A stretch of 64,000 nt of DNA, taken from contig CATOCA020000001.1 in assembly GCA_951406725.2 (NCBI GenBank), positions 10,044,001 to 10,108,000 of the forward strand. Reading direction: 5' to 3'. Under the pieces are notes generated by a model, which worked only from the letters and a program-made list of their open reading frames with translations, was not told the DNA's origin and did not search any database. The position numbers and the translations under genes were made by a program. Each line of letters starts with the position of its first letter. Within the stretch, counting starts at the first letter, position 1. The stretch is from Octopus vulgaris (Eukaryota). Below, piece after piece: positions 23,395-62,942 of the stretch.

Positions 23395-23430
<36 letters not shown>

Positions 23431-24130: not shown

Positions 24131-24174
<44 letters not shown>

Positions 24175-24700
24175 TCTTATCCATATATATATATATGCAC
24201 ATAGTTTTCAAACAATCATGGAGAGGTTACGTCATACGAAAGGAATTGAATTATACTTTGACATGACAAATTGTAAAGAGCATTCAAATTTGAATAAAAG
24301 GTTTCGTGTTAGTCAGGGTGTGGCACGAAATTGAGTTAGCACAATTGAATGAATAGTCCCATTGAATAAGAGTAGTCACCTCCTGCTTATTAACTAACTA
24401 AGAGCCACTTATATCAGTTCGCTTCGTGAGGAAACACGAATCCAAATCATCTCCAGAATAGAAACCATTTGAAATAAGGTAAAAAAAATTTTCTTGTCTT
24501 GAATCTTATCTTAAGAAATACAAATGTAGAAGGACTGGAAATAGAGTTTACGTATATATATATATATATATATATATATACGATTTTTTTCCCTCTGTCT
24601 CCCCTTCCCTGGATCTTTCCTTCTTTCCTGGGCGTCCAATAATACTATATTTGTTCCACGTCCTTGCGTTGTTGTATTTTTTGTGCTTTCTTGTTTGGAT

Positions 24701-24781
<81 letters not shown>

Positions 24782-25254
24782 GTATATATGTACAAGAATT
24801 TTTCATTTTTCTCGAGCATCAGGCTAATACACTTGCTTGTTGTTCCTACATCTCTCTTCGTCTTATTTTTATAGATTTCATCTATATGTATGTATGTATA
24901 CTCTTTGGTACGCTAGCATAAATAGACGGACGTAATACTAACACGTTTACAACGCAAAACATTTATTAGAGCTATTTAAAACCTAAATATTTCTTTATAT
25001 TAAAATTGTTTTATTTTCAGTCAGAATTATTTAGACTTGAAACTATTAAAACATTTTACAAGAATTAAATTTCCATTCACAGAATATAATATAAAATATA
25101 GACCAGTTATAAGTATGGAAAAAAAACTATTTGATGGAAATTAAAGGAATGAAAATATTCATCTAATTATACACTATTTTATGTAGTTTCCAGTGAATTT
25201 CTACTTCTGAAGGGAAATTCAAAATTTGTACAACAACTCTTTCGATTTTATTCT

Positions 25255-32511: not shown

Positions 32512-33101
32512 TGTATGTATGTATATATAAGGGAAATTTATTAAATAATTATGAATTGTCGTAAAGATATTTGCAAAAATCTATAAAGTAAGCACTTGTT
32601 GATAGTTTCTGATTTGATCTCATCTACTTTGCTAGTGTTTCGACAAAGATCAATACAGGAGGTTTTATTAAACAAAATCTGTTTCATTGATTCTTTTACT
32701 ATTTTTCGTAAATTTACCTTTCTCTGGAGAATCAGTTTGTCTTTGATGTAAAGTGCCCTCCACCGTAGCTGGGGTATGATCCACAGATTTATAGCTCAAC
32801 ATGTACGCTGCCTCTACGTAGCTGATCAACAGACTGTACATTCCAATATTGAGGGTTTAATAGTAACCAGTCAATATGTAATCTAACCTAGAGACACAAC
32901 ACAATGACTGTTGTTAGGTTTATTAGTGTCAAGAAGAACATTCAGCTATGAATAATACTTTAGATAAACTGAAGTTTACAATATCAATGTTATCTTATGC
33001 AAGATTTTAGAACCATTAATTTCTGTTTATTGTTGTTTACCTCATTTTATATGTTTTTAAAAACTGTTTTAATCTTTTTTGTCATCTTTTATTCAGAAGA
33101 C

Positions 33102-33179
33102 ATGGGCTCAATCGTTAATAAAATTAGAAATAATGATGTGGAAGGATTGAAAATCTTACTTGAGGAGGAGCCAGGCCAA
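33102..33179 (+). CDS. Exon 1 ([26 protein letters not shown]), ankyrin N-cap
   Basis: Acceptor ttttattcag ends 33096, ATG at 33102, donor GTAAGT at 33180, phase 0. The acceptor implies an upstream exon that I could not locate. Confidence 0.75.
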
Positions 33180-35724: not shown

Positions 35725-35756
<32 letters not shown>

Positions 35757-35790
35757 AATGACGATGATGAAGATGATGATGTTGATAATA

Positions 35791-35832
<42 letters not shown>

Positions 35833-36198
35833 TGGATGATGATGATGATGATGATGACGACGATGATTATTATGATGATTATCGTGATGATGACGATGAT
35901 GATGATGATTATGATGTTATTATTATGATGATGATGATGATAATGATTATGATGATGATGATGATATTGATGAGGTTGATCTTGCTGTTGATGATGGTGT
36001 TGATGATGATGATAGATGCGATGATGATGATGATGATGATGACGATGATAATGATGGTGATGATAATGATGATGATGATGATGATTATGATTATAGTGGT
36101 AATGAATGATGATAATATTGATTATGATGATATTGGAGATGTCAAAGATGATAATGATGATGATGGTGTTGGCAATGAGGGTGATGATGATGAAGGCT

Positions 36199-36237
<39 letters not shown>

Positions 36238-36966
36238 ATGTCAATGATGGAGGTGGTGGCAATGATGATGATGGTAATGATGTTGATGAACATGATATTG
36301 ATGATAATAGTGCAGGTGATGAAGATGGTGATGATGATGAAGGCGATGATGATGATGGCGATGATGGCGATGATGATGATGATGATTTTGTCAATGATGG
36401 AGGTGGTGGCAATGATGATGATGATGGTAATGATGTTGATGAGCATGATATTGATGATAATAGTGCAGGTGATAATGATGATGATGATGACGATAATGTT
36501 TCGTCTCAAAGCCAAAATATTTTCATATTTAATGTAAATTAGTCAATGTTTCTATCTTTTACTCTCAGTGGTCGACCTCATCCTGTGGAGATCTTACTAT
36601 CTCGGGGCAGTGAGGTAAGTATCTTATTTATATCCTTTCGTATGTTCTACTGAAGACGAAAGAATCTATTATGAGATTAATTTCGAAATTGATTCAATAT
36701 AGAAATAACGAACTTTTCAAAAAACATTCTATCGTCCGGCTTTCCCCGGTTTCAGTTCTTCGTGTTTTTTTTTTTCTGTAGCGAGTAAATAATATGTGGA
36801 AATTGACGATTTAAAAAAGTCTCTTATCAGCAAATTGTCATTGAAATACTTTTCTTTAGCCCTTATTTATAAGTTGTTTATAATTTAACTGTAAAGTTAT
36901 TTTAATATGCTGCCACATTTTTTGATGGAATATTTTTTCTGTAAAAAAAACTTCATCCTATATTAG

Positions 36967-38802: not shown

Positions 38803-40666
38803 TTTTGCTGCTCTATGTGTTTATTTATTCAGTTATTCATCCTATATGCGTGTGTTTGTGTGTGTGTATAAATATATTTATATGTACATATGTATGTGTG
38901 TATACGCGTGTGTGTATATACAATAGAAATCTGCATTACCTACTCCCCACCCCAATCATTCCACCTGTTTAATTAATTTCATTCCTTCTCTTCTCTTTTT
39001 CTGTGAGTTTTTCTTTTAATTCTTCACCACCCGACTCCCCTTTCAGACACCATTTTTAATGTTTTTATTCTTTTCTTTTTCAGGTCAACGCACAGTCTAA
39101 TGATGGTCGCACACCGCTGCACTTGGCCTGTTGGTTGGGATCCTTGAACACTGTCGAGCTGTTGCTGGGTCACAATGGCATCGATGTCAATGTGGTTAGC
39201 AACAATGGAGACACACCACTGCATGATGCAGTTCAGCGGTAAGTCCCCATTGGATCTGGAATATCCAAATCTGTTTCTTTTATGTTTTCAATAATGTTTG
39301 TTTCTTTTTCATTCAGTCATTCATGTCATAATCCCACCATGGGGTCATTGTCTTTCTTCTCTCTTTTGCACTGAAATTACACTGTAATCTACTTTATTAA
39401 TTAATCATCACCATAATTGTTATTGTTGTTGCCTGACTGGACTCTTTACTTCATCTCGTTCTCCATTTCCTCAACGTCACAGGTTCAAATCCTCTCTCTT
39501 CTTCCTTTCATCCCATCTTGAACTACTTTCTCTCTCTTTCTCTTTTTCTTCCTCACTCTCTCTCCTTTGTAGTTTCCCTATTTATTCCGACCCTGGGCTA
39601 AATAGAGAATCATCCTCTTACAGTATTTACATTTGTCTCTTTTATGTTCCATGTTCAAATCCTACCAGAATATTTACTATCACTCTGGGGTCAATATAAT
39701 CTGTACCAGTAATACCCAGGGGTTCCTTTAATAAACTGTCTTCCTTCTTTTCTCCAGTTCTTGTTTCTTATTACTTTTAGAGAAAATAAATTGTGTTATT
39801 TTATTTACGACTCTTTACGTTCAGAGTTCAAATCCTGCCAAGGTCAACTTCTTCCATCTTTGCAAGGTTGATAAAATACAATACCTGTCATGTACTGGGG
39901 TTCAAATGATTACCTGTAGCCCTTCTTTCCTTCCTAAATTTCATGTTTATATAAGCTGTCAGAATTCTTAGCTGTATTTTTCCTGTCTTTACATTTCTGG
40001 GTTTACTCAGGTGTGTATATAACATTGTTCTACTGTGTAGAGTGTGTATTGAATAAATATATATGTGTGTGTGAGTATGTGTGTAATAATTGCTGTAATT
40101 AAGTTATTGTGACCTAATTGCATTTGTTTTCTTTAATGACCTAATAATTATTATCTCAAGCTGTGTGATGTTTGTTTTTTTCATGTTTTTCTTTCCTTAT
40201 CCTTTACTTTCAGCCAACACTATAATGTGGTGTCTGTGATGCTGAACAAGGTTAGTTAATAAATATATATTATATACACTCTCCAGTATTATATTGATCT
40301 GTATAATATAAATTTTACCAATGTACCAGTGAAATAATGGAGATAGATTTAATCACATGTACTACAAAACCCTTGTGTTTGTGGAGGATTTGTATATTGA
40401 TCATGTTGATGTTGATATTAGCGGTGTTGACAGTCCAACTGACCACCACCACTGATAATAATATCTTTAATTGTCAAATGAAACTAGGTCATTATGAGAT
40501 GAACCAAAATATAACAGACATCATGTATATATATATTTTAATTGTTTGTGACTTTGACTGCGGCCATGCTGGGGCATCACCTTGAACTTTTAGTCAACTG
40601 TATCGATCCCAGTACTTTTATTATTTTAAGCGTATCACTTACCCTCTCAGCCTCTTTGCTGAACCA

Positions 40667-43524: not shown

Positions 43525-44585
43525 ATATAGCTAGCAGCACCTCGAAAGTAGTAATTACACAAACGAGGGTAATCTGCTAGCTATTCGTTAGGTCAACATT
43601 TAGTGGCAGATACGGCAACTCCAGTTGCCAACCATAAAGTAGAAAGTAACTTTTTTACTGCATATCAATCTTCAATATGGCAAAGTTTACAACCTTCTGC
43701 GGATTGTGAAAAACTTACTATCATCTTACACGTTCATCATCCTTGGATTTTAACTCTAAATACCGTAGGTTTTTGGATTATAGCATTGCACAGAACAACC
43801 TGCGAAACGAATCCGAGAACAATTAGCAAAGTATTTTCTTTAGAACAAGACATCCGAGGTGATGCATTCTGCACCGGAGGATGCAACAGAACCCGTTGTA
43901 CAGAATCCAACCATCAAAGGACCAGATGGTCGAAATGATGTGTGTGTGCGTGGGCGAGTGTACATTAATTTTACGGGAGTGGAACTAACTGCCTCAGCAG
44001 TTTTATGAACCCCTTATTAATATAGCAACATCAAAAGTAAACATTAAGCGAATAATTCTTCTTTACTACACTTGATCCGTTAATCATGTCTTCACCCTTG
44101 TTCAGTTCTCCTAAAACTTACTATAGTCATGAATCTTTATTCCTGACTATAATATGACAACTTAAATTATGTCTCTAATATACACTCAAAGGAAGTTATG
44201 GAGGTACTTTACGAAGGTTCTCTTTACTGACTGACATCAAGTGTGTATGATTAGTTTGGTCAAGTACCCAGTAGAAGACAGTAATAACACATTGGTATCT
44301 ACCCGAATTTTCATGCAGATTTTCATTTTCTATTTTTAACTCTACAAAGGATTATGTTCAGTTTGACATCAAGAACCATCAGAAAGTGACACCATTGCTG
44401 TTAGCTGTCTCTGAGGGCCACCTCAGAATGGTGCACCAGTTGATAGCAAAAGGTGCAGACGTAAATGTTGTCAATAATGAAGGCAACAATTGTCTGCACC
44501 TGGCTGCGAAGACGAAGAGGTTTCATTCCGAGGTTGAACCTTTAAGTATATTAGATAAGGTAAGTTTGGAAATTGTTTATGAATA

Positions 44586-45820: not shown

Positions 45821-47773
45821 GTACAAATCATGCAAAGGCATTCACATCTATCCATCACTATTGTTAACCGTTGCAGAATTCAAGCAACTCCTTGCTACCC
45901 GCATAAATAAAGGACACTTGAAATGTGGGACTATTTTTTCAAACAGTTGATGAATAATTGTGTATTGTAGTAATGTCTACTTTGGTGTGAGAAACCAGTG
46001 ACCTCTCCACCTACTGGAATTTTTCATCCGACAAACAGTTTGAACAGTTTATCAACTATAATGTGTTGGTGCACAAACTCAATCGTGACACCAGTTCGTT
46101 CTTCTCTTTCGTCACATTCATCATCAAAACATTTTTTTATTAATTCATCATCATCACGTTTTTCTATGCTGGTAGACGTTGCACTCTTTGACAGGAACTG
46201 GCCAGCTGAGGAGCTATCAGGGCTCCATGTCTGTTTCCGTATGCTTTCTATGACTCAGTCCTTTGTCATCTGCTCTGTGAGGCCCAACGTCTAATGGTCC
46301 TTTCTCACCACTTAATCACACGTCTTCCTGGGTCCACCCCTTCCGCACTTTCCTTCCACAATCAAAGATCTGCACTTCTTGATGCAGCTGTCTTCATCCA
46401 TATGCATTGCATAATAATACCATCGAAGTCTTCTCTCTCGCACACAACATCCGATGCCTTATATATCCAGCTTTTCTTTCAAATCCACTTAATTATGGAA
46501 ACATTATTGATCTGTTTAGATATGTCTGTGTGTTTTTGATTTAGTTGTTATTATGTTGTTGGTATTCTCTTTTCTGGTATAACTTACATTATTTGGGTTG
46601 TTATATTTATATATACAATACTCTTCCGTAAGTATTTCTCTTGCTATGGCCATTTGGCTTTATCAAGCCAGTTGTAGAGATAGGTTCTTGTTGGTTTGTT
46701 GTCTTTCATTATTGTGACATTTCTGTCCTTATACGTTGTATATTTGACTTGATGTTATAATAACTTTATATTGTGTTTTAATTGAATAGTTTGTGACATT
46801 TGTGATTGGCAAGTAAATATTTACTCATTAAATATCATTGTTAAGCAATAACGTTGACCACTAATGTGCGTTTTGTTCAATATAATGATCATAATTTTTG
46901 TCTTAATGTAGAACGTAAAGTAAAAACAAATGATAATGAAAAGTGGACTCAACTAAGAGATGATGTAAGAAATCAACTCTGTGTGAATAGTTTAATCACT
47001 GGGGAAACAAACTATGTGTAAATGTAGTTGAACTGTTGTTTAATTTGGAGCATCTTTAGTATATGTTTGTGTAATCTTTAACTCATCATTTTATATTTCA
47101 TCATTTGTAGTTCTGCAAGGATCTGAAACTGGGAAACAAAGAAAGGAACTCTGGCGTGGTGGTTGCCAGTTACCTAGCCCACCACGGGGCCAACTTTTAC
47201 TGTAAAAACAAAAGTGGTAGAACACCATTGGACCTAATAAAAAATGAAAATTTAAAAAAGATGTTAAAGACGTTATTCTCACCGCAGTAAGTATTCACTG
47301 GCAATGACAAGATAAACCATTACATTTTCTGTTTTGTATATACCATGTTTATATGTTTCTATTGTTTTAATTCTACTGATACATTATACTGTCTTAGTGG
47401 CTTAATGAAAGGTTAGACAACAACAGTAAGAAGAACAATAAACGATATGCAGTTGTTAAGCTAATTAAAGAAAGAACACTATTTTGATTACATTCAAATG
47501 ATTGGTTGTGTTGACTGTTATACCTCTCTTAAAATCCCAACCCACCTCTCTCAGTTCCCTATGTTAAAGATTTGGGACCAATGAGAAAATGTAGAAGTAA
47601 ATAGTGAAGTGATGGAATTTATCTCTCTACCAACAGATTATTCCTCTGTTTTCTCTGTCCCAGCCAGTCATGTCCATGTGAGCTATCCTGAGAAAATCGC
47701 CTACAAACACATACAATGAGTGTACATAAATGGATACATGCATACATACGTATTTATACATGCATACATAGAT

Positions 47774-47880: not shown

Positions 47881-47940
<60 letters not shown>

Positions 47941-49471
47941 TGTGGGGAGGAAATAAATATTCGTCTGTCAAAATTCTTTATTTAATTTCTAATGAACATA
48001 AATGGGATATACCAATACTATATTCACATACACATGCATAAACTAAGAATATGCAAAAGAAACTAATAAATTATAGTAACTAATGAATTTATATACAATC
48101 ATAAATATTTAGGGGTGAAAAAAGTATTCGTAGGAAATAAATGTATGATTTTCTATGCCACAAAATACTGTTAAAATATATTTTTACTAGAAATTTCTTG
48201 TTTATTCCAATAATCTTATCAGTTTTCATTTTTGAGTGTCAAAACACTAGCTTCTTCATTCAGCACTGAGACAACATAAAGTAATATCGCAATAATGGCG
48301 AAAAGTAAAGAACTCACAAATTCAGTGAAAAACTTAATTATTGAACTGTAGAAAGTAGGTAAAAGTTACAGGAAAATATCAGAGACACTTTGTATTCCGC
48401 TTACTACCATATCTTCATTTATTAGATATAAAGAATCGGGAACTGTTGAAAACAGAATAAGATCCGGAGCACCACGCAAGAATTCCCCAAGATCTTTAAG
48501 AAAAATGAAGAGAAGAATCGGAAAAAAACGCAATAATCACCAGAAAGGAGTTTTCATAGGAATGAACTGAAGTCACGCTCTCCTAGAAAAACTCCTCTGT
48601 TGACTAAAAGGCATAGAGATGCCCGTTTAAAATTTGTTATGAACATAAAGATAAATCTGATACATTCTGGGAAAATGTTCTATGGACAGACGAGACGAAA
48701 ATTGAATTGTTTGGACGAAATTCGCTTTCCCATGTTTGGAGTAAAAACACAATTCCTACCGTAAAGATTGGAGGTGTGGGGATGTTTCTCTGCAAATGGT
48801 ACTGGCAATTTACATGTGATAGATGGTAGAATGAATGCAGAGATGTACCAAAATATTTTGAACAATAATTTATGGGACTCTGTTGAAAAGCTCCAGCTTT
48901 GTGAAGGGTGGGTTTTACAATAGGTTAACGGCCCTAAGCACACGGTGAAGTCTACCAAATATGGATTGTCAATCACAATATAAAATAATTGTAATGGCCA
49001 AGCCTGTCACCTGACTTGAACCCCATTGAAAATTTGTGGCGTTATTTGAAAACTGAAATTCAAGAGCCCCAACATGCATTACAGATTTCAAGAAAATTTG
49101 TCAAGAAGAATAGGAAAAAATTCCTAAAGAAACATGCGAGTCATTGGTGAAGAACTACAAGAAGATATTGGTTGAAGTGGAACTGAATAATGGTTATGCT
49201 ACGAAGTATTAAATCAAAATTATCAGTTCTTTATATTCTCTACGAATACTTTTTTCACCCCTAAATATTTATAATTGTATATAAATTCCTTAGTTACTAT
49301 AATTTATTAGTTTCTTTTGCATATTCTTAGTTTATGCATGTGTATGCAAATATATAATAGTGGTATATCCCATTTATGTTCATTAGAAATTAAATAAATA
49401 AAGAGTTTTGACATTACGAATATTTATTTCCCCCCCGTGTATATATATATATATATATATATACATATACG

Positions 49472-49809: not shown

Positions 49810-52800
49810 CGTGAATTATATTTCTGGAATATATGTTGTTCACTTTGTGTAAATCAGTTTTTGTGATGTATCAATGTCATGACATATACTTATTAATATT
49901 TTTGTCCATTTATATATATATATATGTGTGTGTATATGTGTGTGTGTGTATCTGTGCCTGTGTCTGTGTGTCTGTGTTTCTGTGTCTGCATTTATATACT
50001 CACAAATTCGCCCATATGTAATTGTTTAATTGTGGTGTCGCATAATATTCTCTACTGTAAATATGCACACAATGTAATATTTGTTATAAATGAATGTTAT
50101 TAATGGGATGTGTTCATGTTTTTGTTCCTCAGATGTGTGTTTTGTGAAGACGAAGTGGCCACAGAGACGTTCTTTCCATGTAAACATCTTTCGCTGTGTA
50201 AGAAATGCTGTCCCCAAAGATACCTAAACGATGCCCTACGTGTGGACAGAAGATAACGAGCAAAAATAGTTTGGGTAATAATACTGTATGATCTGTCTGT
50301 TTGTCTCATGGGCTTTATGGTGTGGAATATTGTATTTCATGTTGTTGTGTAGATCCAGTTCTGATTAATCAAGCACACTTTTGATAAAAGATGTTTCAGG
50401 TGTCTTTTCTCTGTCATATTATGTCTCTCACTACTCCCACTAAACATTGTTCTTGTCCAATTAGAAGACTTGTCACTCTTCAAGATGGCTACTTTCTGCA
50501 ACATAAAAATAATAAAGAATACTGAATTATAAATGGTGACTAAATACCAATAAATCACCAAGGTTCTCTTAGTAAATACCGACATCTTGTGTGTGATTAG
50601 AGTGATTAATGATTTATCAATATCTTCGGAAGCCGATAATTAAAAACAACTGCATTTATATGAATATCAGAGTGAGCCTTTATAAAATAGGAGACTCAAT
50701 AAGAAAATCTCAACTGAGGGTTTAGGGACCAACATTAGAGAGGGGACATCAAAAGGGTGGGAAACTTTGATTGATGTATAGATTAGTATTCCTGAGTATC
50801 AGTTCTTCTGAACCGTTTCAAATATTTTCACAGCAATAATGTGTGGACGACAAGTTTTATGTCGTTAATGAGGTTTTGTGTGAATGTAGTGTGTTAATTT
50901 AGAACACGAGATATCACTTCCTGTTAGACCTGATGTCACTTTCTGTTCGACCTGCTTTAATCTGGAGGATGAATGACATTGAAATATCTTCAGATATTTC
51001 CCCACATCTGATTACATTCTGGAGAACTGTGATGTGGGTAATTAAGATTAAAGATTACTAATAGTAACGAATAACAAAGAGAACAGGTATATATATATCC
51101 TGAAGTGGTGTTTCGTGTTTGGGGTTGGATATTCGATGCGCAACTTGGTTGACATTTGAATTTAGCAGAAGATGAGACGAATATTGATTAGAGATCTCTG
51201 GAGGTGAAATGACGATGTCTTGTCAAAGATCTGGAACAAACATAAGAAAACCAAAACGAAACTAAGAGAAAATCTGTTGTTATTAGGGGATAATTAAACG
51301 AGATAATTTCAGAATTGTTAAAATTGTTGGATGCCTTAAGAGACAGAGAAGGGTTGTTAAGTGTAGCTTATGCTGTTGTGGACCTAAATTTTGAATAATT
51401 ACATTGTAATACTGTAGAAATTATACAAATGCTCTCCAAAAGCATGATGGTCACCAGTTGACCAATGATGATAGGATTGTCTAACAATAATAAAACATCG
51501 ATTATTAATAATGATAAAGACTTTTTTCTACAGTGTTTAAAACATGAAATTGTTTATTTCAGAGGGTCCAAAGTCGTCAAAGCCGGAAGTCCAGATGTTG
51601 GCAGAACCACCTGGTGAGTAGAAAATAACTGTACCTAATTATGTTAGACCATATTACTCCATAAGAAGCATAGGGTTGGCTTCCCGGTTCCCCCGGCTTA
51701 TATATTCTTCCATGAAGAGGACGCTAGTCATCATCATTCATCATCATCATTATTTAGCGTCCACTTTCCCTGCTAGCATGGGTTGGACGGTGCAACTGGG
51801 GTCTGGGAAGCCAGAAGGCTGCACCAGGCCCAGTCTGATCTGGCAAAGTTTCTACGGTTGGATGCCCTTCCTAACGCCAACCACTACGTGAGTGTAGTGG
51901 GTGCTTTTTACGTGCCACCGACACAGTTGCCAGAGGAGGCTGTCAAACGGTCACGGTCGGATGGTGCTTTTTTACGTTCCATCGGCACAGAGGTCAGACG
52001 GGCGGCACTGGCAACGGCCACGTCCAGGTGGCTCTTTTACGTACCACCGGCACGGGGGCCAGGTGAGGCTGGCAACGGCCACGTTCGGATGGTTCTTTTA
52101 CGTACCACCGGCACTGGTATCACAGCTACAATTTCCATTGATGTTGATCGATTTTGATTTTGATTTAGTCCGCTGTAAAATTACATATTTTCGCCAGCTG
52201 AGTGGACTGAAGTGTTGGACATATTTTAATCACGTGATTTTGACTCAGAGGATTTAGTAACGAGGATTTATGTGTACTGGGCAGCCCTGATGTGCCTAAC
52301 TTCCCCAGTGAATGATTTCCTTCAAACCGCTGAAAATGTGTTTGATACTCTGCATCAACGCCATTTCATAGCAAAGACTCAAACTAGTCTCCTTATTCAT
52401 CAGAAAGATGATCTGACATCAAATCAAGCAACAGTATTGTCAGACTTGGCAGAAAATTATAGTTTTGTAGTGAAGGATTCGGTGCAAGGGTTTCATCGGA
52501 ACAACTCCCAGGCCAATATATTCATCCATTCGCGATCTGTTATAAGACTGGTTCAAACCCACAATGCACTTCAATCTGTGTCATATCTGATTGTTTGAAA
52601 CATGACAATACCACAGTGCATGCTTTTATTACGAGGGTGATATCGCATATAAAGACAGAACTTCCATTCATAAACATCTCCTGTACTTCAGTAACGGAGC
52701 AGCCGACCAATACAAGAACTAGAGACACCAAACAAATCTCTGTCATCATCAGAATGATCAAGGACTTGAAGCGGAGTCGTATTTCTTTGCCATGTCATGT

Positions 52801-54353
52801 GGAAAAAGGACATATGAGGGAATCAGTAGGATGGTGAAATGTGTTGCTGAAAAAGCAAGTCTACAAGCAGCCACGGAAAGACATTTTCTCACAGGTTGCA
52901 AGGTGTATGGCTGAGCATGTGCAAGCATTCCAGCGATAATGTTCTTTGACATGTCGGCAGCCGATGTCATCCGAAATGAAAACAGCTTCGACTTGCTTTC
53001 ACGATTCAGCAGCTCAGTGAAATTAGTTGGCACACGATCCCATCACCGCTTCGTTCCGTCTTCAAGATCTGATATTTTAACGAAGAAGATCTTTGCACTG
53101 CTATAATGTAAGGATGAAGAGTTACCTGTAGTAGAGTGAAGTTTAGGCAAGTGTATCCTCTTTGAGGACACCTGTTATCATTTTCTGTTCCACCTGTGTA
53201 GAAGTAATCTTCGCTCACCTTTATAAACACTGCTCTATTAAGGTGATTTAAAGCATTTCATGCATCAGCTGACATTCTGGTGAACAGTGATGCAGGAAGT
53301 TGAAAACTAATCATTACCTGCAGTAATGTTTAAGAAGGAGATCAGGTGTGAGTGTTTATACAACTTAAAGTGGTGTGTGTAATGGTTGCCATTGGAATTA
53401 AGCAAAGCTGAGAATAATGTTGGTTAGAGAAGGGCAGAAGTGAGGGCACAATTTCACGTCATATGTTTAGTGCAGATATAAGAAAAGAAAGACAAACCTA
53501 ATCAAAGATTGGTGTTATCAAGTGATAATTAAATGAAATAATGACACAGTTGTTAGATGACGTCGAATGTCTCAAAAGATAAAGGAAATTTAGGAAGGCA
53601 GTGTAAATATTAAACTATTACATGGTAATCCTGTTCAAACTATAAACATTCTAACCAAAACCATTGTCTTCAACAGTTGATTATCTATGAAAGAAATCTC
53701 TGATATAAAATATAGATTATTAATAAAGATAGAGACATTTTTTTTAAATGTTTGAAACTTGGAAATATTCATTTCAGTGAATCGAACATTTGAAGACAAG
53801 GAAATGCAGACACTGGCTGAACCTGTTGGTGAGTATAAAATAACAGCACTTGATTGATTTCTGTAAGGTTTATCCCCTGCTGAACTATTTTGATATCAGA
53901 ATGATAAAGATCAGCTTCCATTCTTACCTTTCAATGGGAAGTTTTAGCTTTAAACTAATCATATTAAACATATCGATACTATTGACATTTAATAAAGTAT
54001 CCAATCAGGTTAGCACGGTTGGTGAAGTGGATAAATTAGAAGCAAAATAGATTTCAGGTTCTCTTTTGGAACAGCCAAATAATATAAGTTGTGGTTTAAC
54101 AGGTGAAGTAATGACAAAGGTTTTGTTTGTTTTATACTCTTTTACTCGTTTCAGACTGTCTCCATGCTGGAGCACCAACTTTTTAGTCGAGCAAATCGAA
54201 CCTAGGACTTATTCTTTGTAAGCCTAGTACTTATTCTATCTGACTCTTTAGCCAAACGGATAATTTACGTGGACGGAAACACACCAGCACCGGTTGTCAA
54301 GCAATGTTGGGTGCGGGTGAAACACATACACACATACATATATATATATATAC

Positions 54354-54397
<44 letters not shown>

Positions 54398-56749
54398 GAC
54401 GGGCTTCTTTCAGTTCCCCTCTACCAACACCACTCACAAGGCTTTGGTTGGCTCGAGGCTATAGTAGAAGACATCTGCCCAAGATTCCACACAGTGGGAC
54501 TGAACCCAGCACTATCGGGTTCGTAAGCAAGCTACTTACCACACAGCCACTCCTATGCCTGTAGTTTAAAAATGTTTACTGACAAGTTATTGTTGTTATT
54601 TTACCTGATGTCTCTCATAATCTGGCAGACTTACAATGAAACGGGTTCCAAATATGACCACCCTCTTATTTTTCACTGATAATAAATCTATCATTGCATC
54701 CACTAAACATTGTCTTTATTCAAGTGGAAGACATCGGTTTGCTGCTCAGAAAACCGTTGTCTGTTTCCCTTTCTCCAAACTTCATAGAGGCTGTATGATA
54801 CAATACAATCAAATACATTCAAAGAAACAGTGGACGGGTTGAAAAAGGAAAGGATAGTGAACACCTTAGATAAAAGCTCCTTAAGAACCCTTCTGATGGT
54901 ACTAGGATATTTTTGCCGATGTTAAGTGGGGGAGATTATAATGCACTAAAGATGAAGTGAACAAGAATATACGGGAGACATAAGAGGACGTAGTGTTTCT
55001 TGGTTACAAGACCACATCCATACGAACCATGATTATAGTCCCTATGTTTCAGTATGTTTTGATGGTATTGTGTTTTCGATTCATTTCATAGGAAACACTA
55101 TGTTGTGGAACATTTCTGTATACGTATTTGACACTAATTAGATGTATTTTATAAAACATTTTAGAAACATTTTCAATTTGTTGACATCAATGATCATTAG
55201 TGACAAATGTGGTAAAACAGTGACGGTGGAATGGGGTGTGAGAAGGCTTTCGTATTCCTTGTAATGTTGTTAACTACGACATCAGGAAGACGGTTTCTGT
55301 CAGGTAAATATTTCTACAGAGGTGTCCATTTCGTCCCCTCAGATTTGATTGAACTGAGTTCTCAGCCCATTCAGAGGCACCGCATTAAGGGGACATCAAA
55401 TGAGAGATGAAAGTTTGGTTGATATATAGAAGAGGGTTGTCAGAGATATCCTAGAGTTTTCAGAATCACTTCCATTCTACCATTTCAGATCTTTGCACTG
55501 CTATAATGTAAGGATGAAGAGTTACCTGTAGTAGAGTGAAGTTTGTGCAAGTGTATCCTCTTTGAGGACACCTGTTATCATTTTCTGTTCCACCTGTGTA
55601 GAAGTAATCTTCACTCACCTTTATAAACACTGCTCTATTAAGGTGTTTTAAGGCATTTCATGCATCAGCTGACATTCTGGTGAACAGTGATGCAGGAAGT
55701 TGAAAACTAATCATTACCTGCAGTAATGTTTAAGAAGGAGATCAGGTGTGAGTGTTTATACAACTTAAAGTGGTGTGTGTAATGTGTTAATGGTTAGATT
55801 ATGGATAACCAAACTGGTTGCCATTGGAATTAAGCAAAGATGAGAATAATGTTGGATAGAGAAGGGCAGAAGTGAGGGCACAATTTCACGTCATATGTTC
55901 AGTGCAGATATAAGAAAGGAAAGACAAACCTAATAAAAGATTGGTGTTATCAAGTGATAATTAAATGAAATAATGACACAGTTGTTAGATTATGTCGAAT
56001 GTCTCAAAAGATAAAGGAAATTTTGGAGGACTGTAAATATTAAACTATAAACATTCTAACCAAAACCATTGTCTTCAACAGTTGATTATCTATGAAAGGA
56101 ATCCCTGATATAAAATATAGATTATTAATAAAGATAGAGAAATTTTTCTATAATGTTTAAAACTTGGAAATATTTATTTCAGTGAATCGAACATTTGAAG
56201 ACAAGGAAATGCAGACACTGGCTGAACCTGTTGGTGAGTATAAAATAACAGCACTTGATTGAATTCTGTAAGGCTTATCCCCTGCTGAACTATTTTGATA
56301 TCAGAATAAAGAGCAGCTTCCATTCTTACCTTTCAATGGGAAGTTTTAGCAGTAAACTAATTATATTAAACATATCGATACTATTGACATTTCATAAAGT
56401 ATCCAATCAGGTTAGCACGGTTGGTGAAATGGATAAATTAGAAGCAAAATAGATTTCAGGTTCTCTTTTGGAACATCCAAATAATATATGTTGTGGTTTA
56501 ACAGGTGAAGTAATGACAAAGGTTTTGTTTGTTTTATACTCTTTTACTCGTTTCAGACTGTCTCCATGCTGGAGCACCAACTTTTTAGTCGAGCAAATCG
56601 ACCCTAGGACTTATTCTTTGTAAGCCTAGTACTTATTCTATCTGTCTCTTTAGCCAAACTGCTATGGTACGGGGACGGAAACACACCAGCACCGGTTGTC
56701 AAGCAATGTTGGGAGGACAAACACATACACACATACATACATATATATA

Positions 56750-56783
<34 letters not shown>

Positions 56784-59700
56784 CATACATACATACATAC
56801 GACGGGCTTTGGTTGGCTCGAGGCTATAGTAGAAGACTCTTGCCCAAGGTGCCACACAGTGGGACTGAACCCAGAACCATCAAGTTCGTAAGCAAGATAC
56901 TTGCCACACAGTCACTCCTACGCCTGTATTTTAAAAATGTTTACTGACAAGATATTCTTGTTATTTTACCTGATGTCTCTCATAATCTGGCAGACTTACA
57001 ATGAAATGCGTTCCAAATATGACCACCCTCTTATTTTTCACTGATAATAAATCTATCATTGCATCCAGTAAACATTGTCTTTATTCAAGTGGAAGACGTT
57101 GGTTTGCTGCTCAGAAAACCGTTGTCTCTTTCCCTTTCTTCAAACTTCATAGAGGCTGTATGATACAATACAATCAAATACATTCAAAGAGACATCGGAC
57201 GGGTTGAAAAAGGAAAGGATAGTGAACACCTTAGATAAAAGCTCCTTAAGAACCCTTCTGATGGTACTAGGATATTTTTGCCGATGCTAAGTGGGGGAGA
57301 TTATAATGCACTAAAGATGAAGTGAACAAGAATATACGGGACATATACAATGACCCAAACGAAGTCAACTTTACCTGCTCATGTTTGTATTGAAATGTCC
57401 AATGAAACCAGTAATCAAATATTTCAGCTTTGCGATTTCAGCAAGACACAAGTATAAAGCTTAGTAAAGAAGGCAAGAACGGAGATTGCAACGGGAGATG
57501 ATTGTGTACCATAGAACGTGTACAAATGTTGTGCCCAGGTGTTATAAGCATTAATTACTATTTAGGGAGTTGTGGGATAAAGGTGAACTGATTAATGAAT
57601 GTTGCAAGACAAAAGGATTTTATTCATCAAAGTAAGTTAATGCAAAACTAAGTGGCCAATTAAAGCCAATTTCAATCTTGAATGGCAAGATTTACAAGGC
57701 TGTACTTGCTAAGTGATCAGCTATATATCTACAAAATAATGATTATGTAAGATGAAATATCCAGAAGGCTGGCATCTCCAGAACCCCTGTATGTAGAACA
57801 TGGATTTTCAGTTTGGGACTCGATAGAAAACACAAAGGGAAATTAAGGAATTTGAATGTGTTATGGCTTGAGCTGGTTAATGCTTTTGGCCCTCTATCAA
57901 GCAGTAAATATCTCCAATCAAGTGTTGATGGATGCAATGAACTTCTTTTAAATATGAGAGAAGAGTAAGGATTTGATGAGGGGCTGCTATAACAATTTCA
58001 ATATGTGTTTCATGAGAGAAAATTTCACAAAATATTTGCATCATTTTGAAATTGGAATTGTTGTAGTTTGCAAAATATCAGTCATTTTGTTTGTGCCTCT
58101 TATGGAGATGTTCCTTTGATCAGCAGATTGATCAAGAGAGACCGGTTCGAGTGAAATAACCTAAGAAGGAAGACATCCATGGAGGATATAAAAGTACCAT
58201 GTAAGAGATTTGGCACAGACATAAGAAACAAAAGATAAAACTAAGGAAACAACAGTTTCTTCAATTGATAAATAAACGAGAAAATTGCTACGTTACTTGA
58301 TAATGAATGTAGGATGTCTTAATAGAGAGAAGTCTAGGAAGGTTAGTCTGTTTGGTTATGGACGTAAATATTGAGCTATTCCATGGGACCACGAAAGAAG
58401 TATAAAAATAATGGCCATTAATGATAAGAATGACTAACATTTATAAAATAAAGACCAATTAACAGAGACAGAGAAATTATACTATGACGTGTAAAATTTG
58501 GAAATATTTATTTCAGAGTCTGTAAACCTGGATGAGAAACTTCTTCATAGTGTAGCAAAGAAGTTGGGGAATAAATGGCAGCAACTTGGTGAGTAAAAAA
58601 AAGCACTTGATTTCTATAAATTTTGCCATTATTTGAACTTTTGTTTGTTAGAATGACTGAGAACAGGTTCCATTCCTAATTTTCTTTCGAATGGTTAGCT
58701 AACGATATTACTGAAATATCACCGAGTATGGTGAAATATATAAATTAGAAGATACACAAGAGTTAATAGTGTCGTTTGGGACAGGAAACTAAATTCTATT
58801 ATTGTTTACAGGTAAACAGGTGAGTTAATGTCAATGCTTCTATTTGTTTACATTGCTATTTAATATACTGGTAGGTTGTTGTTGTTGTTTAGGCAGATGT
58901 ATGCCTTAATCTGGCAGACTTAAGAGGAAAAGTGTCCCAGGTGTGACGCCGTTCTTTTCTTGGCAGAACAGGACCACATTATCAAATGCAACATTCTTAC
59001 AGGAGACTGTGTATCTCGTGAGACATGTTGTAGTAACTCTCCTGGTTAGCCTGTTTCTCAATATTTATTGTAGTCCTTTAGCCCCAGGACAACCTATAGT
59101 CCTCTCTCAAACCAGACAGGCCCTATTGTTGATTATTTTCCAGGGTCGCCTGAACTCAGCCCTTTAAGTTAAGGAAATACAAAATATAAAATAATCATCC
59201 TAACAGAAGTTGTAAAGACAACTTGACTTTGTTTGTCAATTGAAATCATTTCACTCTTCTTCTTTGCTTTACAAACCTCATTTGGAAAGGCATGAACATC
59301 ACAATAAACCATGTCTCCTTGTCTCAAAGTTTAACAACAGAAAGTATCTTTTATACAATGCTCCTAGTATTTACAGTAATGTATTCCACCTCCCTATGGT
59401 ACCTATATGCATGTAGGTAGAATGCACCATAGAGAAATGCCTTTATGTGGGACGTTGATCTGTGCTGGTGACTAGACTTGAACCTTCGTTCCCTGACACA
59501 AAAGGTCATGACAATCACCGCAGTCATCTGATAGAAATGATTTACTTAAATTAAAAAAGGACATCATGTATGTGTGGCCAACTTGTTGTATCTTTTGAAT
59601 TCATATAAAATATACCAGTCATATACTGGGGTAAAATCGATTCACTAACAGCAGTCCATTATCCTCATCTTCCGTTCATTTTTCTCCCACAGTTGTGTTT

Positions 59701-62700
59701 CTTTGTCAGGTTTAACTTTTTCCCTTCCATTTAGATCTCCTGCCATTTCTTTACCCAAATTTTATTTTTCACACTTCCCCTCCCCATATTTCTACCATCT
59801 CCTCTCTCATGTATTAGGGTGACAACTAAGTTCCCTCTATTTTGTTGTTTTAAAATTTAAAAGGTCTTATAAAAAAACCAGCTAATTAATGAATAATGTA
59901 TTCACCCTTGTTGTTTCCAACTTCTTCCCAACGTTCAACAAGATTTGTAATACCTCGTTCGTAGAAATCACCCGATTTCGACTGGAAAAATTGATCCAAC
60001 CAAGCTCTCAATTCTGCATCAGTATTGAAGGAAACTCCGCGTATATCATTTGAAAGAGATCGAAAGAGGTAGAAATCCGTTGGTGCCAAATCAGGAGCGT
60101 ACGGCGGGTGTGGCAGCACTTCCCAGCCATGCGTTTGAATGGCTTCCTTGGTTATATTGGCGATGTGAGGGCGGGATTTATCGTGCAGCAGAAGAACTCC
60201 ATGCTGACGATTAGGTCTTTTCTCTTGAATAGCTGTGTTGAGCCGTTGCATCATTTGAACATAGAGTTCCGTGTTAACCGTTTGGTTCCGTTCAAGCAAC
60301 TCGTCATGGATAATTCCTTCCCAGCCCCACCATACGCACAACATCGCTTTACGCAGATGAAGATCTTTTCACGCGCGGTGTCGCTTGTTTACCGGGGTTA
60401 AGCCATTCCTTACGCTGCTTCATATTGATGTACAGGCACCATTTTCCGACTCTAGTAACGATTCGGCCAAGAAATCGTTGCCTGTGTCCATGAGTTGAGC
60501 GGTGACGAGCAAACAAGCCAGCAGAAATTGTGGCTCGTTGATTTCTGCTGTTGTCACTTAAAGCATGCTGAACCCATGCTCCATACTTCTGAACCTTTCC
60601 CATCGAGTGAAGATGCTTCTCTATAGCAGTGTGAGAGCATTCCATTTTCTCTGACTGTTCCCCTGTCATTTGACGTGAATTCTCGTGCAAAAGTTGGTTT
60701 AATCGCTCTTCATCGAACTCAACTGGACGGTCAGAACAAAGTGCATCTTTGAGGTCAAAATTTCCATTTGTGAACATGGCATACCAATCACAAGCGGTTC
60801 TTTCAGTTATGGCACCCTCTCCATACACTGTACAAATGTCGCGAGCAGCTTTTGCAGCCTTAGAACCTTGATTAAAAGCAAAAAAGTAGGTGTCGAAAAT
60901 GCTCGTTTTTCTTAACTTGACATTCAGTTTTAATGATCTGAAAATAAACAAAAATTAACTAAAATTAACTACAAAGAAAACAAAATAGATTCCAAAATAA
61001 TTCAAAATAGAATTCTCAAAAGCAAAAATAGATTCCAAAATTTAAAAACGCCATAAATTCCAAAATTTATAAAACCCGCGGGAACTTAGTTGCCAACCCA
61101 ATACTATCTCTGCTTCTTTGAAGACAAAGTTTTTCTTCCTGCTCATCTTTTGTCCAGCATCTCTACACATGAATATTTTACTCCTAGTGAAGTATGTCCA
61201 CCTCATTTTATGCCTGTTTTTAATACATTTTCCACATTCAATGCAATATTGCACTTTACAACTACACATCACTCTGCACTTCATCTGGAAACAGAATCGC
61301 TTCAATGCAAATAGACACAACAGCTCTCTGTACAATTTTGCAGTTCAGTTACTATGCTTTCCGCATAGTCTCCTCCACTTCTAATCATACCTGTTAGGTA
61401 ACAGAAACCAGCAACTACGTCTTTCTGAGTTGATATTACTTCAGATTCATTTTGTATATTTCATACTTACAAACCCCTTGCCTTCTTTCAACTTCTCTCT
61501 GATCCCACTGTACACTTTGTGTGCATTGAATACACCATATAAAAATCCTATTACCCCGACCTTTCTTTTCCTGCATATCGAATATGATAACTTCCCAGTT
61601 CAGGTAGATATTTATGGATACAGTAGTTCCTTCAGGATCTAACTGTTGTTGGCATGTAGATGGCGAGTCCTGCCTTCGTTTTTTGCTAAAACACTTCTCA
61701 TTGTAAGGGTTACCTTGAAACCTCTCCATTATAAGAATTTCTCTAAAGAGTGGAAGAAATCATTATTATGAGTCATGAATACAGAAAGTCTAAGCTGTTG
61801 CCTTTTATAATATGTGATGTGTAGCAATCACTATGAAATTGTTTGTGTGGTTGACATCATTCTACCATGCATTGTATGTATTTCTATTTTAATTGGTCCA
61901 GGTGTACCAAATATTATTGTTATTATTTGACATTTCAATCTCAGCTTTCTAGATATTTGTAAATATGACAATTTGAGGCATTGACCATGGAATGTTATCA
62001 AACGTCGGAAATAGACTCCTTTTGAGGGGTGTCTGGAGTAACGTTACTCGACAGGGTGTGTAGGCTGGAGATTTGGGTGTTCCTCCAGGTCAAACGGCTG
62101 CTTCTCTGCATTGAGAAGTCAGAACTCCAGTAATAGAGAAACGTGATTAGAATGTCACAAAAATGAATCGCAAAACGGGTTCTTGAAGCTGAGCCAACTG
62201 ACAGGAGACCCCTAGGGGTAGATCGAGACTAGATTGTTGGATAAAATCCATAGTTTCAATTGGTCATGTTTGAGAATGGATTCAGAAAAGCTTCTGATAG
62301 GACCCGACGAAGGAGATTCCTAAAGACTCTACCCCTGCAACCCTTCTATGAATAAAGGACAGAGAAAATGGATGGATGGATCAAATCGTGTAACTGTTGG
62401 TCTCTATTGATTCTTTAGGCTCTCATACACTCTTACCCACAGAAAAACACTTCTCCTTCCTGCTCTTTACCAAACATTTTCTCGTGTAACTTTCAGTTAA
62501 TTCTTTTTCAAAATGTTTTCTCCATTTCCAGCCTTTATTTCAAAATGTTTGTTATTTTTGTCAACATCTTTAGAAACAGAGACCAATGTCTTCTATTTTC
62601 CCTGTTTCTTAAGTATTTCTCATTCCTCTAATCACATGATTTCTTTGCTATATTTATAACAACCCACCACACACGTGTGTTATATTATCGGTAATGTTGT

Positions 62701-62942
62701 TTTAATTATATTTCTGTATTGTTGTATCTTTTGCAGGGAGAGAATTAGGAATTAAACAAGTTGACCTGAACATTATCAAGAGTGACTTCCCTAATGATAC
62801 AGCAGAACAAAGTTTCCAGATGCTCTATAAATGGTTCCAGTGTTGTGATCCAGCGAATCGTACACTTAAAACATTAACGGACGCTCTTAAGGAATTCGAG
62901 TGTTCCGATGCACTTGAACGTCTATCATTAGACACAAATTGA
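33102..62942 (+). CDS. Multi-exon gene: ankyrin repeats + RING (C3HC4) + death domain, MIB2-like E3 ligase/adaptor (13 coding exons, ~477 aa if one 1-nt frameshift is corrected)
   Basis: Manual splicing of 33102-33179, 34961-35118, 36569-36614, 39084-39238, 40214-40250, 44350-44559, 47111-47286, 50133-50274, 51563-51613, 53778-53828, 56183-56233, 58517-58588, 62737-62942. All introns are GT-AG with polypyrimidine tracts and compatible phases (0,2,0,2,0,0,2,1,1,1,1,1). Sum is 1433 nt, one short of 478 codons. Ankyrin TPLH motifs, RING cysteines and death-domain W/L pattern are present. Confidence 0.85.
34330..34920. repeat. ~590-bp polypurine (GA-rich) tract in intron 1
   Basis: Almost exclusively A/G on the + strand, ending ~40 nt before the exon 2 acceptor. 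Confidence 0.95.
34961..35118 (+). CDS. Exon 2, ankyrin repeats ([20 protein letters not shown]...[11 protein letters not shown])
   Basis: Acceptor ttcattacag, donor GTAAGT, two ankyrin TPL/TALH motifs, phase 0 to 2. Confidence 0.9.
35306..36500. repeat. ~1.2-kb degenerate (GAT)n microsatellite in intron 2
   Basis: Visible directly; higher-order duplicated block at ~36240-36330 and ~36390-36480. Confidence 0.97.
36569..36614 (+). CDS. Exon 3, ankyrin helix 2 ([15 protein letters not shown])
   Basis: Acceptor tttactctcag, donor GTAAGT, 46 nt, phase 2 to 0; completes the repeat begun in exon 2. Confidence 0.85.
37058..37365 (+). mobile_element. SINE family C (tail ...gtcgtcgtaaccgacggagtgc)
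   Basis: Homologs at ~6630-6892 plus 7480-7545 (split by a family B insertion), 29030-29370 and 63448-63770. Confidence 0.8.
37807..38740 (+). mobile_element. Two head-to-tail SINE family A copies (37807-38210, 38255-38740), intron 3
   Basis: Two heads and two ccagcatggcc-type tails. Confidence 0.85.
39084..39238 (+). CDS. Exon 4, ankyrin repeats ([51 protein letters not shown])
   Basis: Acceptor ttttttcag, donor GTAAGT, consensus ankyrin motifs, phase 0 to 2. Confidence 0.92.
40214..40250 (+). CDS. Exon 5 ([13 protein letters not shown])
   Basis: Acceptor tactttcag, donor GTTAGT, 37 nt, phase 2 to 0; supplies the missing ankyrin helix. Confidence 0.8.
40550..40925 (-). mobile_element. Diverged SINE family A copy, intron 5
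   Basis: tttgactgcggccatgctgggg tail and cttctttcagttttcatttaccaaatccact body in reverse orientation. Confidence 0.7.
41944..41978 (-). ncRNA. Hammerhead-like motif in a dispersed ~200-bp element (41850-42045), intron 5
   Basis: Reverse complement is identical to 20290-20324. Confidence 0.6.
42880..43100 (-). mobile_element. Old RTE-like LINE remnant
   Basis: Decayed 'EEVL...P....' type segment on the minus strand; weak. Confidence 0.35.
44350..44559 (+). CDS. Exon 6, ankyrin repeats ([24 protein letters not shown]...[10 protein letters not shown]...ILDK)
   Basis: Acceptor ctctacaaag, donor GTAAGT, 210 nt, phase 0 to 0. Confidence 0.9.
45345..45380 (+). ncRNA. Degenerate hammerhead-like motif, second family
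   Basis: cttt-GTGTGGA-a-gagc(gtat)gctc-GAAA-cg-TT-aaag; stems intact, core damaged. Confidence 0.4.
46147..46500 (-). mobile_element. RTE-clade LINE 3' remnant
   Basis: Minus strand reads VRERRLRWY...[27 protein letters not shown], typical of the RTE C-terminus, with a (GAT)n tail. Confidence 0.7.
47111..47286 (+). CDS. Exon 7, last ankyrin repeat, Mind-bomb-like ([28 protein letters not shown])
   Basis: Acceptor tttgtag, donor GTAAGT, phase 0 to 2; resembles the MIB1/MIB2 'ACFLA.EGAD....N..G.SPLDL' segment that precedes the RING. Confidence 0.88.
47940..49439 (+). mobile_element. Tc1-family DNA transposon, decayed, with ~190-200-bp IR/DR-type TIRs
   Basis: TIRs ~47940-48132 and ~49240-49439, each with two ggg..aaa.a.tattcgt direct repeats; TA flanks. 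Transposase remnant 48295-49212 reads [40 protein letters not shown], with stops and frameshifts. Confidence 0.92.
49646..49681 (-). ncRNA. Hammerhead-like motif, second family, A6U core variant (element ~49584-49755)
   Basis: Reverse complement is cttt-CTGTAGA-a-gagc(gaag)gctc-GAAA-tg-TA-aaag. Confidence 0.5.
50133..50274 (+). CDS. Exon 8, RING finger (CVFC-x11-CKH-x3-CKKC...CPTC) with apparent 1-nt deletion near 50212-50230
   Basis: Acceptor ttcctcag. The first six ligands are in the entry frame, which stops at TAA 50254-50256. [15 protein letters not shown] and a phase-1 GTAATA donor are in the shifted frame. Confidence 0.85.
51563..51613 (+). CDS. Exon 9, 51-nt symmetric micro-exon ([17 protein letters not shown])
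   Basis: tttatttcag / GTGAGT, phase 1 to 1; flanks homologous to exons 10-12. Confidence 0.7.
51740..52160 (-). mobile_element. SINE-like repeat family D with internal ~60-bp GC-rich tandem repeats
   Basis: cggttggatgcccttcctaacgccaacc block, with a reverse match at ~32320-32450; repeated ttttacgtaccaccggcac units; (CAT)n tail. Confidence 0.6.
52260..53085 (+). mobile_element. Decayed DNA-transposase fragment (possibly Sola-like; superfamily uncertain)
   Basis: [24 protein letters not shown], then frameshifted FS.GAA.QYKN-like and FFA.SCGK-like motifs. Confidence 0.6.
53778..53828 (+). CDS. Exon 10, 51-nt symmetric micro-exon ([17 protein letters not shown])
   Basis: ttcatttcag / GTGAGT, phase 1 to 1, no stops. 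Confidence 0.7.
54135..54560 (-). mobile_element. SINE family A inside the duplicated cassette (paralog at ~56535-56925)
   Basis: Present in both duplicate copies, so it predates the duplication. Confidence 0.85.
56183..56233 (+). CDS. Exon 11, identical duplicate of exon 10
   Basis: Same 51 nt and splice sites, inside the second copy of a ~2.4-kb-period tandem duplication. Confidence 0.65.
57700..58200 (+). mobile_element. Decayed RT remnant of an R2/NeSL/Hero-like retrotransposon
   Basis: [13 protein letters not shown] (cf. WLDL.NAFGS) and [18 protein letters not shown] (cf. GI..GCTIS.ILF). Confidence 0.5.
58517..58588 (+). CDS. Exon 12, death domain N-terminal helices ([25 protein letters not shown])
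   Basis: tttatttcag / GTGAGT, phase 1 to 1; death-domain 'VA..LG..W..LG' motif. Confidence 0.88.
59814..61101 (-). mobile_element. Mariner (DD34D) transposon, 1288 bp, decayed; TIR resembles the mellifera subfamily
   Basis: TIRs ttagggtgacaactaagttccc / ttgggttggcaactaagttccc with TA target duplication. Transposase 59886-60951 has [15 protein letters not shown] and [13 protein letters not shown]; the first catalytic D is lost and the ORF is frameshifted. Confidence 0.95.
61960..62382 (+). mobile_element. Old RTE-like LINE 3' remnant
   Basis: Decayed SGVTLLDRV...[10 protein letters not shown]...VIRM...RRP.GR motifs and a (GGAT)n tail. Confidence 0.5.
62737..62942 (+). CDS. Exon 13, rest of death domain ([32 protein letters not shown]...[14 protein letters not shown]...) to TGA
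   Basis: Acceptor cttttgcag, phase 1; 'ELG...I..D.P....EQ..QML..W' and 'L..AL' death-domain motifs; stop 62940-62942. Confidence 0.9.

Follow-up and report, generated by a model that had tools for sequence, protein, structure and literature searches.

The stretch of Octopus vulgaris DNA described here (64,000 nucleotides (nt), contig CATOCA020000001.1 of assembly GCA_951406725.2, positions 10,044,001 to 10,108,000; hereafter the window) is microsatellite-rich animal DNA and carries, on the plus strand between 33097 and 62942, a gene of 13 exons. The gene encodes ankyrin repeats (exons 1-7), a RING finger (exon 8), a linker made of three short cassette exons (E9-E11) and a death domain (exons 12 and 13) (Table 1). 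The three cassettes and the first death-domain exon (E12) form an array of homologous exons, and their comparison suggests that E9-E11 are shortened, decayed tandem copies of E12 that serve as a spacer between the folded parts of the protein.

Exons 1-7 form a single open frame starting at the ATG of exon 1. The Pfam Ank family was found in all four ankyrin exons tested (one of them under the cut-off), and the family proteins align with exons 1-7. The peptide of exons 12-13 both scores above the cut-off of PF00531 and adopts a death fold in structure comparison. The death-domain structure matches (ankyrin-G, RAIDD, RIPK1, FADD and TRADD) superpose with root-mean-square deviations of 1.8-2.2 Å over 83-93 columns, with probability 1.0 and E values of 0.001-0.005. 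They share the six-helix-type death fold, but the sequence identity is only 18-34% and none stands out as the closest partner. The ESM Atlas returned generic death and RING look-alikes and nothing more specific.

Table 1. Exons of the octopus gene and repeated units around its cassette exons (window positions)
Feature	Position	Strand	Description
Exon 1	33097-33179	+	ankyrin repeats
Exon 2	34961-35118	+	ankyrin repeats
Exon 3	36569-36614	+	ankyrin repeats
Exon 4	39084-39238	+	ankyrin repeats
Exon 5	40214-40250	+	ankyrin repeats
Exon 6	44350-44559	+	ankyrin repeats
Exon 7	47111-47286	+	ankyrin repeats
Exon 8	50133..50274	+	RING finger, C3HC4 type
Intron 8	50282..51562	+	belongs to the repeated unit
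Exon 9 (E9)	51563-51613	+	51-nt cassette, 17 residues; motif degenerate, P in position -3 and M in +1
Exon 10 (E10)	53778-53828	+	51-nt cassette, 17 residues; LC8-like motif D-K-E-M-Q-T-L
Exon 11 (E11)	56183-56233	+	51 nt, identical to exon 10
Exon 12 (E12)	58517-58588	+	72 nt; first exon of the death domain, encoding helices 1-2 and the conserved W
Exon 13	62737..62942	+	remainder of the death domain and stop; PF00531, E 1e-8
Duplication unit around exon 10	53087..54982	+	
Duplication unit around exon 11	55487..57347	+	
Copy of the intron 8 start	58820..58998	+	behind a donor-like GTGAGT, downstream of exon 12; p=0.001

The gene is one of a large family of Octopus genes with ankyrin repeats, a RING finger and a death domain. 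P0002, an O. sinensis protein whose E9 and E12 are identical to those of the window, was used to query 1.84 billion representatives; this search and two word searches together returned proteins of the order ankyrin-RING-linker-death domain. In the species lookup 10 of 10 and 14 of 14 family matches were from Octopus, the remaining matches of the P0002 search carrying no species name. A separate protein search with exon 13 gave four matches, all from Octopus, and its peptide is found letter for letter in the O. vulgaris record P0007. Family proteins carry the annotation name of Mind bomb (MIB1/MIB2), with which they share ankyrin repeats followed by a C3HC4-type RING; the octopus proteins differ in having one RING and a C-terminal death domain, and no Pfam match to the MIB/HERC2, ZZ or Mib-repeat families was found in the four homologs scanned. 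MIB1/2 typically have an N-terminal MIB/HERC2-ZZ part, Mib repeats and several RINGs.

Each of the exons E9-E12 is preceded by ATTTCAG and followed by GTGAGT, and their lengths are multiples of three. In the upstream introns (580 nt with the acceptor removed, compared against 100 dinucleotide shuffles) all six cassette pairs align, with z scores of 11.1-114, while the maximum among 36 control pairs with other exons is 2.7. Downstream, E10, E11 and E12 align with one another (z 17-130) and E9 does not (z -0.3 to 1.3); among the 32 downstream control pairs exon 5 against E10/E11 reaches z 14, due to a dispersed repeat, and exon 8 against E12 gives a real similarity with z 3.7. A reading made beforehand from the sequence alone (the sequence-only reading) had described the exon sizes and symmetry, the common upstream sequence of all four exons and the downstream blocks limited to E10-E12, and on each of these points it agrees with the alignments, including those of the E12 flanks with the flanks of E9-E11. 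What it had overlooked is that E10 and E11 are identical at 51/51 nt, within a duplication of ~1.9 kb whose intron copies differ by 3.5-3.9% substitutions, that exon 8 is one base short, and that the cassettes, taken pair by pair, resemble E12 only weakly. Scanned with a profile of the four units, the window yields just these four copies and no fifth cassette.

Intron 8 is itself part of the repeated unit, since its blocks recur in the E10 and E11 units and after E12 (three blocks, p=0.001, 1000 shuffles). The copy downstream of exon 12 suggests, at the sequence level, a remnant of a further unit that was lost, or a recombinant gene. The further idea that exon 12 is followed by the remains of a RING exon was rejected as not significant (p=0.18; p=0.85 for the E10/E11 units). 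The array has the features of tandem duplicated symmetric exons, namely copies of exon and intron in tandem, symmetric phase, and splicing of E9 and E10-type exons into RNA-type contigs. As for size, 51 nt falls within the loosest limit for microexons alone (≤51 nt), other abstracts setting ≤27 or ≤30 nt.

Compared pairwise, E9-E11 and E12 are only weakly alike (19-21 of 51 nt, 2 of 17 residues). The alignment of the cassette peptides with death-domain helix 1, proposed in the sequence-only reading, is thus poor between single exons but holds against the family: with a profile of 21 death-domain first exons, in register, E9 scores p=0.011 and E10 p=0.0012. On the paralog linkers the best stretch reaches p≤0.021 in 6 of 13, the other seven being not significant. 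The clearest likeness is shown by linker exons of full length, 24 codons, two of which score p=5e-5 (P0172, 10/24 identical; P0012, 12/24 identical) and three others p=0.007-0.05. As exon 12 belongs to a genuine death fold and such full-length intermediates exist, the comparison indicates that the direction is from the death-domain exon to the cassette, via exons of 24-26 codons down to 17 codons, with the exon 12 type ancestral. The proposal that the cassettes arose from the first exon of the death domain through duplication of exon plus intron is accordingly upheld by the intron homology, the profile and the 24-codon intermediates. A deletion between short TTGG repeats was tried as an explanation for the shortening from 72 to 51 nt and set aside; the ends of the cassettes match the exon 12 end equally well, and the site of the 21-nt loss is ambiguous.

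The copies have lost core residues of helix 1. Leucines 10 and 17 are present in 20 of 20 death-domain first exons, and among the unique cassettes in 0 of 36 and 1 of 35, respectively; the tryptophan is lost, with none in register. For these counts one record per locus was kept (the isoform proteins P0158, P0159, P0026, P0161 and P0163 were dropped), the cassette registers were set by eye, and the 22-residue cassette of P0008 lies outside the in-register set. In the AlphaFold2 model of the near-identical O. sinensis P0002, in which exon 12 is present, residues 1-41 are coil with a predicted local distance difference test score (pLDDT) of about 50, whereas the exon-12 part is helical and above 90 from residue 51. 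Because both leucines and the tryptophan are lost and the cassettes are predicted to be coil, they would be unable to replace helix 1, contrary to the substitution envisaged before, and a transcript that skips exon 12 would more probably encode a domain that does not fold.

Splicing was followed in four runs aligned to positions 49995-54315, a range that covers E8-E10 alone. The runs are contigs of other animals; X1 is a DNA run, and the RNA status of X13, X16 and X19 is a guess. Paralogs were aligned at 90% likeness, so the joints are not locus-specific. The GT..AG joint 8>9 (50273>51562) has a depth of 14, 667 and 1006 in X13, X16 and X19, and the joint 9>10 (51612>53777) a depth of 15, 714 and 1006, both being at 0 in X1. 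Exon 8 is therefore spliced to exon 9 and not always straight to exon 12, and in this gene E9 is followed by an E10-type exon in one serial spacer, the two not being used as mutually exclusive exons. The one-copy-per-transcript pattern of Dscam is not seen, as the 9>10 joint occurs in all three RNA-type runs and homolog models carry serial cassettes.

The sequence-only reading had gone further and proposed a generator of isoforms, in which regulated combinatorial splicing of exons 9-12 tunes the spacing between the RING and the death domain, and skipping of exon 12 gives altered or dominant-negative death domains. All four exons do keep the frame, and three O. bimaculoides models of one gene (P0160, P0026 and P0161) differ only in having 5, 4 and 3 cassettes, with a unique 3>5 join, so that cassette skipping likely occurs in the family. 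Several gene models (P0004, P0046, P0079) moreover jump from the RING to the last death-domain exon; RNA support for them was not seen, and models without exon 12 may have overlooked a short exon. In the present gene, the joints run in series at matching depth, and neither the skip joint 8>10 nor the go-back joint 10>11 is among the 15 of 155 joints listed. Loose ends at the E10 donor number three in X16 and two in X19, with mixed sequence; the consensus of the X19 ends, built by hand with ties given the alphabetically first letter, fits exon 12 and the 22-residue cassette of P0008 at 30 of 30 places, and not exon 13, while the X16 mix has no unique resolution. As E10 and E11 are identical, there is also little left to combine, and the cassettes lack the helix core with which exon 12 could be substituted. 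Regulated combinatorial splicing is therefore considered unlikely for this gene.

The reading frame of exon 8 deserves separate attention. As assembled, the exon has 142 nt and is one base short at a C/A run (50212-50218), which leads to a stop at 50254-50256; the phase 1-1 noted earlier for E9-E12 thus holds only with the open exon-8 frame of other animals, and fails in the assembly as it stands. An extra base is found at 50211 (4 of 4 runs) or 50215 (4 of 4 runs), and among homolog proteins the open frame occurs in two forms, one with an additional C and one with an additional A, so the break is likely an assembly error in the base run. The same exon contains a donor-like GTAAGA (50198-50204), at which the gene model P0003 apparently exits the exon.

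Taken as real, the break would make this copy a decaying pseudogene, or E10/E11 could be a false duplication in a partly mis-assembled region. The identity of E10 and E11, the absence of a 10>11 joint among those listed, and a methionine in the window in place of the threonine that the O. sinensis E10-type exons have at an anchor position (see below) would fit such an explanation, and since the runs come from other animals, the defect could be private to this one. However, the remaining 12 exons are intact, and the break sits in the C/A run where all four runs have the additional base. The E10 and E11 units are also further apart (3.5-3.9%) than the window is from two long intron contigs (~1.5%; 12/738 and 9/599, with 21/719 in a third), and E10-type copies number 2, 2 and 3 in the O. 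sinensis models P0008, P0167 and P0025. Decay of this copy or a false E10/E11 duplication thus appears rather improbable.

Across the paralogs the linker varies from 0 to 6 cassettes of 17, 22, 24 or 26 residues, in line with the modular linker of variable length suggested before, and members with no cassette are P0157, P0068, P0011 and P0023. In a tree of 14 rows, exon 7 plus the RING of the window are sister to P0008 (95/88), while the death domain is sister to P0157 (97/96). Seven records whose RINGs are identical to that of P0175, which is of the window type, at 39-46 of 47 positions (P0008 and P0165-P0170, plus P0171) have death domains identical to exon 13 at only 28-41 of 67 positions, so that at least four other types of death domain accompany almost the same RING among the records. 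Judged from these sequences, most of the variation seems to stem from differences in copy number between genes and from the swapping of modules, for which unequal crossing-over between the kilobase intron repeats would be the simplest cause of the mosaic.

The mosaic could instead reflect splice choice, if a single locus carried several downstream modules of cassettes plus death domain among which splicing picks. Within single RNA-type runs, the loose ends do show E10-type exons continuing into at least two different next exons, and the same RING and E9 stand ahead of at least four death-domain types. The records sit on different contigs, however, and the window shows no second module from exon 8 to its end, which renders this explanation quite improbable, the least likely of those considered.

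Two further observations concern the spread of the modules. The same type of death domain is found at the end of a leucine-rich repeat (LRR) receptor-like protein and around LRRs (P0053, P0029); it may have moved into other gene types, or the models may be fused. In the linkers of P0018, P0012 and P0020 a cassette lineage has gained C-x-x-C repeats and lost the QT anchor, and these cassettes may represent a second, metal-binding use of the same exon.

The cassettes that keep the anchor resemble docking motifs of LC8 (DYNLL). According to PMC6607443, PMC12057147 and PMC5963919, the LC8 anchor is a Q with T as its neighbours, and there is a preference for D at -4 and for K/R at -3. The anchor flanks are T or a similar mid-sized residue, position -4 is polar, -3 is large or basic, and there is no internal proline (PMC6607443). 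Binders with measured affinities include ZFPM1 (SDKGVQTP, 1.6 µM) and Bmf (EDKATQTL, 0.7 µM), and further ones are the dynein intermediate chain (KETQT) and gephyrin (EDKGVQCE) (PMC12057147). In the octopus cassettes, columns 8-12 show K/R-x-V/T-Q-T in register in 17 of the 36 unique sequences, as against 0 of 20 death-domain first exons. This strict motif is found at 11 of 13 loci (mean of 0.11 and maximum of 3 after shuffling) and does not occur in 3646 residues outside the linkers. E10/E11 of the window (EDKEMQTL) have M at -1, their D and K agreeing with the rule of a polar -4 and a large or basic -3, while E9, with P at -3, does not comply. The motif region is predicted to be disordered in the homolog P0002.

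It is also possible that the cassettes are tolerated by-products of an unstable tandem family, with an irrelevant spacer sequence and a QT motif inherited by accident; this explanation retains an appreciable share of the probability, though less than an even one. It is favoured by the members without cassettes, and by the loss of the motif in E9, its change in E10/E11 and its absence from the two most expanded arrays (P0012 and P0018). The motif columns are no more conserved than their neighbours (P3 in 26 and K4 in 24 of 36 cassettes, as compared with 27, 27 and 25 for V10, Q11 and T12), and among 11 held-out family records the strict motif is present in just two (three with S/I at -1, four with a looser +1). 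On the other side, position -1 alternates between V, T and S, all of which occur in measured binders, while Q-T is retained; several copies have D at -4 and D/E at +2, and E-x-Q-x-L-A-E-P is kept between E9 and E10 together with three synonymous changes.

The interpretation that we prefer, with a probability of about 0.6, is that E9-E11 arose as tandem copies of the first death-domain exon, since shortened and decayed, with E9 and an E10-type exon spliced serially into a predicted disordered spacer; that the cassettes likely vary by recombination between introns; and that they would likely offer sites by which LC8 clamps two chains. An exon with its flanking intron was duplicated in tandem in symmetric phase, and E9 and an E10-type exon are included in series in RNA-type contigs, as the joints 8>9>10 show. 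The comparison shows the death-domain exon turning into the cassette through 24-26-codon intermediates, with loss of helix-1 core residues. Recombination between the homologous intron flanks has probably altered the cassette number and joined one ankyrin-RING part to different death domains, and occasional skipping would add variation in some paralogs. The last step is more tentative: the K-x-[TV]-Q-T motif would bind LC8/DYNLL, the number of cassettes setting the valency and dimerisation of what is likely a signalling ubiquitin ligase. A dimer of LC8 holds two parallel chains, and neighbouring sites assist weak ones (PMC5963919, PMC6607443); bound to the motif, LC8 dimers could dimerise the RING ligase and pre-cluster the death domains. 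Use of LC8 somewhere in the family is a possibility that falls a little short of even, and its use by the M variant of the present gene is unlikely. A prediction of the complex between an LC8 dimer and two copies of a 33-residue frame around exon 10 (intron-encoded flanks included) gave a score of 0.01, which speaks neither for nor against binding; the LC8 used was a metagenome sequence two residues from DYNLL2, and the alignment was not used.

Several points weigh against the preferred interpretation in addition to the weak conservation, the degenerate E9 motif, the motif-free arrays and the few held-out matches given above. The 13 loci share ancestry, and the shuffle null overstates the enrichment. 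Internal proline and hydrophobic residues at +2 are disfavoured by LC8, and many TQT peptides do not bind (PMC6607443). Among 62 binders listed in PMC12057147, counted by eye, none has M at -1. The joints come from contigs of other animals, are presumed RNA and mix paralogs; the paralog proteins are gene models, some on contigs of 28-67 kb and possibly chimeric; and the copy in the window is frame-broken as assembled.

Outside the cassettes, the window contains several repeats. A Tc1-like element lies in intron 7 (47908-49469), with inverted ends of ~235 bp that are 90% alike, and a mariner-like transposase remnant in intron 12 (59886-60954, minus strand). Intron 2 holds an (ATG)n array of 1.17 kb (35325-36498). 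Upstream of the gene there are reading frames broken by stops (14762-17878), which resemble the endonuclease and reverse transcriptase of a long interspersed nuclear element, and a further fragment on the minus strand (11795-12547). A tRNA-like sequence was spotted by eye at 18036-18100, and a unit of ~2.1 kb, 91-95% alike, occurs in three tandem copies at 18422-24792, without a family exon.

Tandem exon duplication is said to occur in ~10% of animal genes (PMC9013439), and the octopus array resembles it in that an exon and its flanking intron are copied in tandem with the frame kept. It differs in that the copies lose the fold of the parent, a folded-domain exon becoming a predicted disordered linker, and in that their number varies between paralogs. 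The mutually exclusive clusters of Dscam1, described in the same source, are likewise arrays of homologous exons formed by tandem duplication, but in the octopus gene E9 and an E10-type exon are used in series, the fold depends on the parental exon 12, and there is no sign of a one-of-n choice. Among LC8 clients (PMC6607443, PMC12057147, PMC5963919), ASCIZ, Nup159, 53BP1 and Chica are multivalent, whereas Bmf, ZFPM1, gephyrin and the dynein intermediate chain have single sites. The octopus linkers resemble the multivalent clients in that motifs of the D-K-x-[TV]-Q-T kind follow one another in a region between folded domains that is predicted to be disordered; they differ in that the putative motif comes one per exon and from death-domain helix 1, that its number equals the exon copy number, and that the window has M at -1. 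Among the titles and abstract openings covered, which leave most subscription journals outside, no account of the family or of an exon-born LC8 motif was found.

Tandem exon duplication as such is ordinary; what is unusual is the traceable series, in a young family whose named matches are all from Octopus, from a folded exon of 24 codons through intermediates to a linker of 17 codons. The family offers a test case for the birth of short linear motifs and the evolution of multivalency, with natural variants of 0-6 sites. In the full version, which we regard as doubtful on the present comparisons, duplication of the exon and two or three substitutions would have made an LC8 docking motif out of death-domain helix 1. 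Its valency would be tuned exon by exon, through the number of copies and through skipping, and death domains would be exchanged among ankyrin-RING ligases by way of the repeated introns, so that the family would be a recombining, modular set of signalling adaptors. A part in immunity can only be guessed at from the domains present. The family also suggests an invertebrate route to diversify death-domain signalling through module swapping.

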